Assembly (NCBI GenBank): GCA_000092065.1
Contig: CP000586.1
Strand: one strand, 5' to 3'
Length of the DNA stretch: 64,000 bases
DNA from: Ostreococcus lucimarinus
Lineage: Eukaryota
Shown: one piece after another, positions 24,173 through 27,122 of the stretch
How the letters are laid out: each line of letters begins with the position of its first letter
Numbering within the stretch: the first letter of the stretch is position 1
Program-made: the position numbers and the translations under genes
The notes under the pieces: generated by a model
Databases searched by the model: none
The model's input: only the letters and a program-made list of their open reading frames with translations
What the model was told of the DNA's origin: nothing

Positions 24173-25726
24173 CTAGCGCTCGCACGCGAATTGTGGAGAA
24201 AATTTTCTATCTGTGCACCCAGTCACGTGCGCCTTATCATCCCAACGTCCGGCGAACGGGACGATAGTGTCGTAAAACAGACACGTCTCGCGCATGTCCT
24301 CCTCGTCCGAGTCGTTGGAGATCCAAGCCCAAGCTCTGAACGCGTGGCTAGGTTCGAGGGCGTATTTTCTACAATCTACCGGCGACTTGGCGGTACCAGT
24401 ACCGAGCGGGGTCGCAAAATCTGCCTGGTCCAGTCCGATTAAGCCGTGCACGATGTTGGGGTTGGATGAGCTCTCGTCAGGGACGAGCACCTCGTCGGAT
24501 TCCTGATGCGCCACGGGTTCTGGGTTGGTCGGTACTGGCGACCGCACATCCGAGGGCTGATTAACAGGTTCTTGTACCGGCTCAGCCACCTTGGCCGGTG
24601 TCGTTGAGACCTCTGGTTCTGGGGCGGGGATTGCGCTCGTCGCGTTTTCGTCCGCGCACGCATGCAACGGCGAGACATCGGAAGCGGTGCACCCAGTGAT
24701 GAGCGTCGGCTCCTCGTAGCCAGCAAATGGCACGATTTCTTTGTAGAACAAGCATGTCGATCGCAATGAGAGATCATTCGCTTCCGAGTTAGCGTAAGCG
24801 AAAGCCACATAATTGTGCTCAGCGGCGAAATCTCTGCATTCGCCCGGACCGCTCGTCGATTGCCCTCTACCGAGCGGCGTTTCGTAAGCAACATTCAAAC
24901 CAAGCATACCGCGAACGATGTTCGGGCGAGTCTTCCGCACTTGCGGTGCGGGCTCAACTACAGCTTCCACCTCCTCCGTCTTCGGCACCCCCGGCTCGGA
25001 CACTGCGGTAGCTACCTCGTGCTTGGCCGCGGGCTCACCCGTCGCCGCCATCGCCGTGCTCTCAAGCTTGCATCCGTTCGCTGGAGATACATCGAAGCTC
25101 GTGCAGCCCATGATGTGCGCGTGATCTCCCGGGTACCCCTCAAAGGGCACTACTTCGCGATACATCAGACACGAGTTTCGCAACCGCTCGATGTCCGAGT
25201 ACGAATTCACCCACGCCCACGCCACGTAGTGTTCCTTTGCGTTGTCCGCGTACTCTCGGCACGCTCCGGGGGAATCAGCGTTACCGACCCCAGCCGGCGT
25301 TTCAAACGCGCTCATTTTCGGGTCAATGAAACCATTCACTATATTCGGATGATTACCGCGCACTTTCGCGTACGCCGCGGCTTCTTCCGCCGTCAGCGGC
25401 GGTTTGATTTGCTTCAACATCTTCACTTTGGTGTTGGATTCCGGGGCGACGACGTCGATCTTGCCCGACGTTGCCGGAGCGTGACGGTGTTGTGGCACCG
25501 ACACCACAGTACTCGTCGCGCTCTGTTCCGCGCACACGCACTTCGGCCCGTCGTCGCATCCCAAGTCCACGACCGCGCCATCGCCATCGCCGCGACCGAG
25601 GGCGAGACCCACGCCGACGCCGACGACTAACGCGGTCACGCCGACGACCACGGGGCGCTTGTACCACGGCACCGCAGTTGATTTGTGGGGGCGAGACAGT
25701 ATGAACGCTTTCTCTTCGTCCGACAT
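24173..25726 (-). CDS. Type-II membrane protein with three tandem ~95-aa four-cysteine repeat domains (unknown family)
   Basis: N-terminus MSDEEKAFILSRPHKSTAVPWYKRPVVVGVTALVVGVGVGLALG is a signal anchor. Three repeats follow: NIVxG..(x)TPxGxG..SPxxCRxYA...HYVAWAWVNS...LRxxCLxYxxIVPFxGY......GCTxxxVSPxxxC. Pro/Glu/Val-rich linkers separate them. Confidence 0.5.
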   Translation of the reverse strand: MSDEEKAFILSRPHKSTAVPWYKRPVVVGVTALVVGVGVGLALGRGDGDGAVVDLGCDDGPKCVCAEQSATSTVVSVPQHRHAPATSGKIDVVAPESNTKVKMLKQIKPPLTAEEAAAYAKVRGNHPNIVNGFIDPKMSAFETPAGVGNADSPGACREYADNAKEHYVAWAWVNSYSDIERLRNSCLMYREVVPFEGYPGDHAHIMGCTSFDVSPANGCKLESTAMAATGEPAAKHEVATAVSEPGVPKTEEVEAVVEPAPQVRKTRPNIVRGMLGLNVAYETPLGRGQSTSGPGECRDFAAEHNYVAFAYANSEANDLSLRSTCLFYKEIVPFAGYEEPTLITGCTASDVSPLHACADENATSAIPAPEPEVSTTPAKVAEPVQEPVNQPSDVRSPVPTNPEPVAHQESDEVLVPDESSSNPNIVHGLIGLDQADFATPLGTGTAKSPVDCRKYALEPSHAFRAWAWISNDSDEEDMRETCLFYDTIVPFAGRWDDKAHVTGCTDRKFSPQFACER

Positions 25727-25880: not shown

Positions 25881-27122
25881 TCAAATCCACGGGAACAAAA
25901 AGTACTCGGAATAGAACAACGCCCAGATATCGCGGTAGTACTGTAGAATGGCATCGCGCGAAAACTTGGCGTTTTCGAGCGCCTTGGTCTTGACGATGAG
26001 GAAGGAGGCGAAGAGGGCGTGGCCGCCGATCATCAAAGGTTGGATGAACCACGTAGGATTCTTCACCGAAAGCGCGATAGCGAAGATGTAGTTTGCGAGC
26101 AACAACCCTGATCCAATGTAAGACACCTTCTTCACCCCGAGACGCGTGGAAAACGTTTCAATCTTGTACTTTAAGTCACCCTCGATGTCCGGCAAGTCCT
26201 TGGTGATGGCGATGACGGTGGCGAAAGTCGTGACGAAGATGGTGATGAACGTAATCGCAGGACTCCACACAAAGGGTAAACCAATCGCAGCTCGAGTGGC
26301 GTGGTACACGCCAAAGTTGAGCAAAAACCCACGCACGCAGGCGATGATGAGGAAAGCGGGAAGCGCGTACTGCTTCAAGCGCAACGGCGGCACGGAGTAA
26401 ATCGTGCCGAGGAACAAGCCAAAGCAGTACAATTTGGTGATCAAAGCTCCAAAGTTCGTGGCGACGATCGCCGCTCCGCCGAGCGCGGTGACGGCGCAGA
26501 ACGCCCACGCGGCGAACACGGAGAGTTCACCAGAAGCCACGGGCAAAAACGGCTTGTTCACCTTGTCGATGTCGATGTCATAAATTTGATTGATTCCGAC
26601 GATGTATCCATTCCCCATCAGCAGCGCCAACAGCCCTAACAACGCGCGAGGAACCAAATGCATGGAAATCATTTCCGGGTTCCCCATCAAAATCTTCGAC
26701 ACGATCGCCGTCGTACCGAGCAAAGTCCCTCGAATCGTGTGCGGACGCACGAATTTCCATATCGCCGCGCCGAGCGCGTTCAGTTTTCCAGTCTCCCCAT
26801 CCACGGTCGTCGACCGCGCGATGACGCGTCGTCGACGCATCGTCGCCGTCGCCGTCGTCGTCGCCGCCGCGTCGACCCCTCGCGCATCGATCGCGCATTC
26901 GAACCCACGCGCCGTGGACGACGCGCGCACCGTCACCGTCGCGCGTCGCGTCGCCCCGACGTCCACGCGTCGACGCGTCGCCGTCCGCCGCGCGCTCGAC
27001 CTCGCGGCGTCGCGCGTCGTCGTCGTCGTCGTGGTCGTCGTCGTGGCCGTCGTCGCGCGCATCGTCGCTCGAATCGTCGCGCGCGGCGCGGTGTGCGACG
27101 CCCGTCGCGGGCGACACGTCAC
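25881..27122 (-). CDS. Homogentisate prenyltransferase (HPT/VTE2- or HST-like UbiA family) with poly-Thr transit peptide
   Basis: [24 protein letters not shown] is the homogentisate prenyltransferase signature (NQxxDxxIDKVNKPxLPLASGE). Multiple TM helices. The N-terminus is Thr/Arg/Ala-rich and plastid-transit-like. Confidence 0.7.

Follow-up and report, generated by a model that had tools for sequence, protein, structure and literature searches.

What kind of protein is encoded at positions 24173 through 25726, minus strand, of a 64,000-nucleotide stretch of Ostreococcus lucimarinus contig CP000586.1 (herein the window, meaning this stretch at its full length), and what might its repeated modules be for? 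An initial sequence-only reading had singled out the gene as encoding an anchored protein with three tandem repeats of unknown family, and had asked whether these might be PAN/apple- or lectin-like. From comparison with homologs and from predicted structures, we conclude that the repeated module is probably a divergent, unannotated branch of the PAN/apple binding fold, which would provide both a fold and a plausible role for a conserved “hypothetical protein” of picoalgae; apart from this, the protein would count among the unremarkable, though unannotated, representatives of a very common extracellular fold.

A Conserved Picoalgal Gene Encodes Three Homologous Four-Cysteine Modules

The listing of open reading frames (ORFs) contains one intact ORF at 24173 through 25726, exactly where the sequence-only reading had placed it: a complete, intronless coding sequence on the minus strand with an ATG start, 517 codons, and a stop. 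A search for homologous proteins returned eight clusters with 35 to 99% identity to the window protein, of which six are full length and one (P0003) is a fragment; the database name of every cluster is “hypothetical protein.” The six full-length clusters have in common a layout of tail, anchor, and three modules. Gene order is likewise conserved, with Fer2, a UbiA prenyltransferase, this gene, an MT-A70-like gene, and SMC following one another on contigs of four lineages, and with UbiA as the upstream neighbor of the ortholog in a fifth; UbiA and Fer2 in the window itself were confirmed by Pfam. With homologs and synteny in agreement, this is a real, conserved cellular gene of picoalgae, and a chance ORF was rejected as a reading of the interval. 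The compact, intronless genes, the GC content, and the link to viruses described below suggest a Mamiellales-like picoalga. A profile search of the window found the domain gene in single copy only, and a search of the literature on Ostreococcus or giant viruses in combination with PAN or apple domains turned up nothing on the window protein.

The chain contains three modules of 90 to 93 residues (all coordinates of the protein are on the minus strand). Module 1 comprises residues 127 through 219 (25070 through 25348; Cys 156, 186, 208, and 219), and was delimited by alignment and BLASTP; it has the same strand/helix/strand pattern as module 3. Module 2, defined by alignment, BLASTP, and AlphaFold, comprises residues 268 through 357 (24656 through 24925; Cys 297, 325, 346, and 357). 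The membrane-distal module 3, defined by AlphaFold and by its PAN/apple fold matches, comprises residues 423 through 515 (24182 through 24460; Cys 452, 482, 504, and 515), and the protein ends two residues beyond it. The modules are 44 to 48% identical, with 30 invariant columns in their alignment and exactly four Cys in each. Their likeness is not due to chance, given BLASTP E values of 5e-30 (repeat 1 versus repeat 3) and 6e-27 (repeat 2 versus repeat 3), and the three homologous four-cysteine modules proposed from sequence are thus borne out. The invariant columns fall in PNIV-G, TP-G-G, SP--CR--A, A-A, R--CL-Y, VPF-G, GCT, SP, and the final C. Most of the motifs listed earlier stand as given; two need amendment, since the Tyr of “CR-YA” is Phe in repeat 2, and in the “PF-G-Y” core only PF-G is retained throughout, the residue after it being Arg rather than Tyr in repeat 3.

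The modules are separated by linkers predicted to be disordered. Linker 1 (residues 220 through 267; 24926 through 25069) is rich in Ala, Glu, and Val (A9, E8, V7, T5, P5), has 15% identity among lineages, and is modeled with a predicted local distance difference test (pLDDT) value <50. Linker 2 (residues 358 through 422; 24461 through 24655) is rich in Pro, Glu, Val, and Ser (P12, E9, V9), was assigned as disordered from composition, identity, and AlphaFold pLDDT, and carries one N-x-T site at residue 361. The Pro/Glu/Val-rich character attributed earlier to both linkers therefore describes linker 2, while linker 1 is Ala/Glu/Val-rich. An independent AlphaFold model, of the full-length protein, gives each of the modules one and the same pattern of strands and helix (pLDDT 65 to 89), flanked by regions of pLDDT <50 (residues 1 through 111, 223 through 268, and 359 through 422; predicted template modeling score [pTM] 0.29); as modeled, the protein is three globular modules arranged as beads on disordered strings.

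Conservation follows the same division. Mean identity among four divergent lineages is 44% for module 1, 45% for module 2, and 55% for module 3, which is the best conserved of the three; for the linkers and the stalk that precedes module 1 it is only 15 to 24%. Tandem Repeats Finder detects no DNA-level tandem repeat under the protein repeats, which argues that the triplication is old. A crude neighbor-joining tree unites the algal repeats in a single clade, sorted by position (repeat 1 with repeat 1, and so on), so the triplication appears to predate the split of the lineages.

The Predicted Structure of the Module Resembles PAN/Apple Domains

The possibility raised by the sequence-only reading, that the repeat is PAN/apple-like, was examined by modeling one repeat and searching with the model. 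Module 3 alone is predicted with high confidence (pLDDT 93, pTM 0.86) and shows the features expected of a PAN fold, namely one α-helix on a small antiparallel β-sheet within about 70 to 90 residues. Structure searches with this model return PAN/apple folds; AMA1, Kremen, leech antiplatelet protein, and MANEC rank later. The suggestion is thus upheld at the level of predicted structure. The description “unknown family” holds in that no curated sequence family covers the repeat, and gives way in that its fold is a common extracellular superfold and the repeat is one branch of a wide family. A C-type lectin is ruled out as an alternative, as no C-type lectin-like fold or profile appears among the matches. 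A WSC domain, which has an eight-Cys pattern, was rejected because the Pfam WSC profile gives no match.

Several results weigh against membership of the PAN superfamily. Foldseek matches to the Protein Data Bank (PDB) are weak, all with E >1e-3 and the best at 0.025 (probability 0.98), although they fall in the same fold classes. No PAN, WSC, or MANEC match is found in Pfam at E<=10 for the protein, its three repeats, or 21 orthologous repeats; these scans yield noise only (DUF2477, E 0.09 to 0.16), so the assignment to PAN_1, WSC, or another well-known domain that would have overturned the earlier reading did not materialize. Sequence searches of the PDB with the protein and two profiles give no match apart from one chance hit (E 0.11). 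With hhalign, a profile of the wider four-cysteine family (see below) produces no alignment with the HGF N domain alone, and reaches a probability of only 7% (P 0.005) against a small ad hoc PAN alignment. The ad hoc profile had among its seeds the C-terminal region of a protein from the viral locus L016; its matches to tails of the L016 and P0133 type are therefore circular and were not used. As sequence profiles give no connection, the case for PAN homology over convergence toward a small fold rests on the predicted structure.

Several differences set the module apart from characterized PAN/apple systems. The apple domains of plasma prekallikrein and factor XI (PAN_1; SMART APPLE) have no sequence-profile match with the module. 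They have six Cys, a disulfide joining the N and C termini, and a CxxxC helix, whereas the module has four Cys, of which one lies in the helix; moreover, the factor XI apple domains pack into a disc, while the window modules are predicted to stand apart on long disordered linkers. An apple domain in the strict sense (factor XI/prekallikrein type) was accordingly rejected, the N-terminal Cys being missing. The PAN/apple adhesins and lectins of micronemes (Toxoplasma MIC4, Sarcocystis SML-2, and Eimeria MIC5) are only 9 to 15% identical to the module and differ in Cys pattern; they are secreted from micronemes, in contrast to the window protein with its predicted type II anchor.

The Module Belongs to a Four-Cysteine Family without a Pfam Model

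At a threshold of E<=1e-3, an exhaustive HMMER search of 1.84 billion representatives with a profile of the algal repeats identified 145 cluster representatives, and 43 of these also pass E<=1e-10. Two, P0104 and P0184, proved to be false positives with no domain below 1e-3 on rescoring (P0104 is a 1045-residue protein with about nine repeats, acyl-CoA-binding-protein-like by eye), and the remaining 143 contain 214 domain copies. The four Cys are invariant in 151 to 152 of 152 well-covered aligned domains, which have the consensus t-e-CR--A-----Y-AWG-R---Hp----rNTCFlY----pf-G---D--H-tGC--pG--v--GC. A profile of the wider family scores the three window repeats at 5e-21 to 3e-24; this profile draws 43 of its 46 sequences from the family and includes the window's own three repeats. 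The module therefore belongs to a four-cysteine family without a Pfam model that spans 143 or more sequence clusters, some of them from giant viruses.

An N-terminal hydrophobic segment is the only one in 73 of 118 complete-looking family proteins. Among 109 members scanned, Pfam never annotates the four-cysteine domain itself; the domains that co-occur with it are F5/8-C (7), ricin-B lectin (6), TSP1 (5), collagen (4), PAN_1 (4), and B-lectin (3). The Pfam PAN matches lie outside the four-cysteine domain, as in P0120, where PAN is found at 231 through 278 and the domain copies at 136 through 222 and 418 through 498. The co-occurring domains suggest an extracellular, glycan-binding, or adhesion setting for the family.

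The Cysteine Pattern Suggests One Retained PAN Disulfide

In a canonical PAN module a CxxxC helix is tied to two strands; in HGF the bridges are Cys70-Cys96 and Cys74-Cys84. The helix of the window module reads C-R-x-x-A and thus has a single Cys, the i+4 position being Ala in 144 of 152 family domains. In the hhalign register, which carries the 7% probability given above, the first Cys (C1) corresponds to HGF Cys70, the invariant Ala to Cys74, and a conserved Tyr to Cys84, while the second Cys (C2, in TCLFY) corresponds to HGF Cys96 (in QCLWF); the HGF sequence used for this comparison was checked against the PDB. Most likely, one core PAN disulfide is kept, between the helix Cys and the central-strand Cys (C1-C2). 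The second would have been lost, its two Cys replaced by the invariant Ala and the conserved Tyr, which distinguishes the module from the N domains of HGF and plasminogen. A further difference from these domains is an extra pair of Cys at the C terminus (G-C ... C, ten residues apart), which may form a new local bridge, C3-C4. The N-terminal 29 residues of every repeat are devoid of Cys, and 148 of 152 family domains have four.

A Single Predicted N-Terminal Membrane Anchor Follows a Conserved Tail

Ahead of the modules lie a short tail, a membrane segment, and a stalk. Kyte-Doolittle hydropathy over 19 residues peaks at 2.42 for residues 25 through 43 and exceeds 1.6 only in windows starting at residues 23 through 28, leaving a single hydrophobic segment in the protein. 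This putative signal-anchor helix (PVVVGVTALVVGVGVGLAL; 25598 through 25654) is modeled by AlphaFold as a helix at residues 26 through 42. Its N-terminal flank has a net charge of +4 and its C-terminal flank of −3, from which an N-in, type II orientation is predicted. With one N-terminal hydrophobic segment and the more positive flank on its N side, the protein is, by these sequence measures, a type II single-pass signal-anchor protein, and the N-terminal anchor noted earlier is recovered by charge, hydropathy, and modeling alike.

The predicted cytosolic tail (residues 1 through 24; 25655 through 25726), delimited by ortholog alignment and with its net charge of +4 beside the membrane segment, contains six residues that are invariant across seven orthologs: E4, E5, I9, L10, W21, and Y22. 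The first four form the motif E4-E5-x-x-x-I9-L10 (residues 5 through 10 at 25697 through 25714), and W21-Y22 (25661 through 25666) directly precede the membrane. The E-x-x-x-I-L motif resembles, without being, a canonical acidic dileucine signal; a sorting function is made less certain by its Ile in place of the first Leu of canonical [DE]xxxL[LI], and by its absence from the more distant putative orthologs P0086 and P0093. In the ortholog P0008 (locus L020, 1203 through 2855) the start as called falls within the last part of the UbiA gene that lies upstream, and a 63-residue N-terminal extension stands ahead of the tail motif; as the motif begins only at Met64, the extension is probably a miscalled start.

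The juxtamembrane stalk (residues 44 through 126; 25349 through 25597) is poorly conserved (21% mean identity) and modeled with pLDDT <50. The only Cys of the protein outside the modules, at 57, 63, and 65, lie here, just past the membrane segment. Cys 63 and Cys 65 form a C-x-C motif on the predicted exoplasmic side (25532 through 25540) that is kept in six of seven aligned orthologs, the exception being P0008; P0086 and P0093 carry CxCxC in its place. The motif may form interchain disulfides.

Giant Virus Contigs Carry Related Anchored Proteins

Typical members of the family are found on IMG/VR giant-virus contigs, several of which are named GVMAG and some of which are prasinovirus-like. Searched against the whole library, the algal-repeat profile matches the viral-contig proteins P0107 (7e-14), P0110 (2e-13), and P0116 (2.7e-12). 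One viral-contig member adjoins genes for a UDP-glucose dehydrogenase, an alginate-lyase-like protein, and PhoH. On each of two contigs (L015 and L016) a pair of family genes lies adjacent, in the company of an acetolactate-synthase-type TPP enzyme, sugar-modifying enzymes, an F5/8-C protein, and a Pox_A22 resolvase; among viruses, acetolactate synthase has been reported only from Ostreococcus and Micromonas prasinoviruses (review, PMC5371798). The protein encoded by the first gene of the pair (L016 8001 through 9206; also in L015 and L017) has an anchor at its N terminus, followed by a long predicted coiled coil rich in Lys and Ala, a single domain, and a tail with many Cys, which is PAN-like by eye but has no Pfam match. 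The second (L016 9602 through 11677; also in L015 and L017) encodes two domains and a very long Ala/Lys-rich region; its C-terminal “CFSPDTPV...” stretch is Hint/intein-like by eye and likewise has no Pfam match. The coiled-coil “Rad50-like” hypervariable-region protein of a 2026 OtV paper could not be tied to the four-cysteine family. The viral-flagged contig L018, which carries a two-domain protein of the P0116 type, comes from the same JGI sample (3300033183) as L001, a 256-kb algal contig with an ortholog of the window gene; its GC content of 0.52 is about ten points above that of most other viral loci.

Searching viral structure predictions with Foldseek places first an uncharacterized protein of Bathycoccus sp. 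RCC716 virus 2 (A0A7S6NYG7; E 3e-6, template modeling [TM] score 0.72), a match that is structural only; a taxonomy look-up assigns this virus to Prasinovirus. The next five matches are unnamed entries (TM 0.59 to 0.75), and annotated viral “PAN/apple” proteins reach TM scores of only 0.4 to 0.5. Besides A0A7S6NYG7, the matches in this structure set (BFVD) include C7U035, G4YAF6, E5EQT0, G9E5K2, and A0A6G6XNH1. The viral homologs and the window protein have a common layout of N-terminal hydrophobic anchor, stalk, and C-terminal modules. They differ in that the viral proteins have one or two copies of the domain, often behind a coiled coil, whereas the algal protein has three behind disordered spacers, and in that viral and other members share the consensus AWG-R---HP----RNTCFLY, whereas the algal repeats have AWAW/AFAY and are without the conserved Arg and His. 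Nothing in IMG/VR is a close copy of the window protein.

A Model for the Window Protein and Its Alternatives

On balance, we think it probable that the product of the window gene is a membrane protein of type II topology whose three PAN-like binding modules are borne on flexible spacers and face either the cell exterior or a lumen. The chain would begin with the 24-residue cytosolic tail and cross the membrane once through the signal-anchor helix; all that follows would be exoplasmic, exposed at the surface or within a secretory or endosomal compartment. Flexible, fast-evolving acidic spacers rich in Pro, Glu, Val, and Ala would hold the three globular modules, which would bind a carbohydrate or protein ligand, as other PAN/apple modules do. 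Module 3, membrane-distal and best conserved, would for the latter reason be the likeliest main binding site. The juxtamembrane C-x-C might link chains through disulfides, and the E-x-x-x-I-L motif might direct adaptor-dependent sorting. We infer the exoplasmic location, the disulfide pairing, the binding function, the oligomerization, and the sorting; a role in adhesion or recognition, likewise derived indirectly, is favored by analogy with the domains that co-occur in the family. As a functional analogy only, the animal type II lectin receptors DC-SIGN and CD23 have a short cytosolic tail bearing a sorting motif; their signal anchor is followed by an extended neck, and their disulfide-rich binding domains lie at the C terminus. 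The window protein appears to be built along similar lines.

Other destinations for the same chain have to be weighed. Proteins resident in the Golgi classically combine type II topology with a short tail in the cytosol, as the window protein is predicted to do; a resident or cycling Golgi, endosomal, or vacuolar protein, such as a receptor for luminal cargo or glycans instead of an adhesin of the plasma membrane, would also make sense of a conserved tail motif that appears to resemble acidic dileucine signals to endosomes or vacuoles. Retention of the gene in lineages at 35 to 42% identity, which points to a conserved cellular role rather than a lineage-specific one, is in keeping with such a destination. 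We nevertheless consider it unlikely, as long disordered acidic spacers that carry three binding modules are seen more typically in proteins exposed at the surface, and as other members of the family contain domains characteristic of extracellular proteins (lectin, TSP1, collagen, and F5/8-C). Secretion of the three-module protein after cleavage of a signal peptide would be compatible with a sole hydrophobic segment near the N terminus and with the small residues that follow it (G-R-G-D-G), which could permit cleavage. Against this, a 24-residue tail with six residues invariant in seven orthologs is unusual for an n-region, the flank charges fit a stable N-in anchor, and the 19-residue hydrophobic core is longer than the 7 to 15 residues typical of cleaved signals; secretion thus has only a slim chance. 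A WSC-type sensor of surface stress or integrity is very improbable, as the protein fails the defining features of that class.

The viral relatives invite the further thought that the protein lies at a host-virus interface, either as an attachment receptor or decoy for prasinoviruses or as a protein that viral homologs mimic in order to compete for its ligand. The prasinovirus protein that heads the viral structure matches, the profile matches to P0107, P0110, and P0116, and the paired family genes that share contigs with an acetolactate-synthase-like gene and a Pox_A22 resolvase are all in its favor, and the prasinovirus receptor is still unknown (review, PMC5371798). Domain sharing is, however, not evidence of interaction. 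The algal repeats form a clade of their own in the crude tree and were triplicated before their lineages split, which argues for an old cellular gene rather than a recent exchange. IMG/VR has no close viral copy. Known virus resistance in Ostreococcus maps to the glycosyltransferase-rich chromosome 19 (PMC5082852, PMC5371798), and the modules, judged from identities only, evolve under constraint and show no sign of the fast change that an arms-race receptor would be expected to undergo. Such an interface is decidedly unlikely, and it is improbable that the three-module protein is the cell-surface molecule that prasinoviruses engage or imitate; any link to virus attachment is speculative. If true, the anchored PAN-like proteins of the viruses would bind the host protein like with like or compete with it for a glycan that both recognize, and adsorption and host range in the most abundant marine picoalgae would depend in part on this gene. 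The module is found on N-terminally anchored proteins both of algae and of viruses that infect this algal group, which makes the gene a candidate for studies of cell-surface recognition and virus attachment.

Neighboring ORFs and Features of the Window

On the plus strand, 21550 through 23070 is a 506-residue ORF with an “NPPW” motif and no Pfam match; its syntenic counterpart in L019 matches MT-A70 weakly in precomputed annotation, and the ORF may encode a divergent adenine methyltransferase. Directly downstream of the window gene, a 298-residue ORF on the minus strand (23092 through 23988) also has no Pfam match. The close relatives L013 and L014 have this ORF, the corresponding position of L019 has no such gene, and L001 has a different, 248-residue gene there; the ORF may be lineage specific. 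Scans of the whole 64-kb window for tRNA genes and against Rfam gave no matches. The GC content of the window, taken in 2-kb windows, ranges from 0.48 to 0.63, with low-GC blocks at about 10 to 14 kb, 34 to 38 kb, and 54 to 60 kb. The UbiA prenyltransferase ORF (25881 through 27122, minus strand) contains a run of ten Thr, with TTA before it, at 26990 through 27040, in the N-terminal and presumably targeting region of its product.

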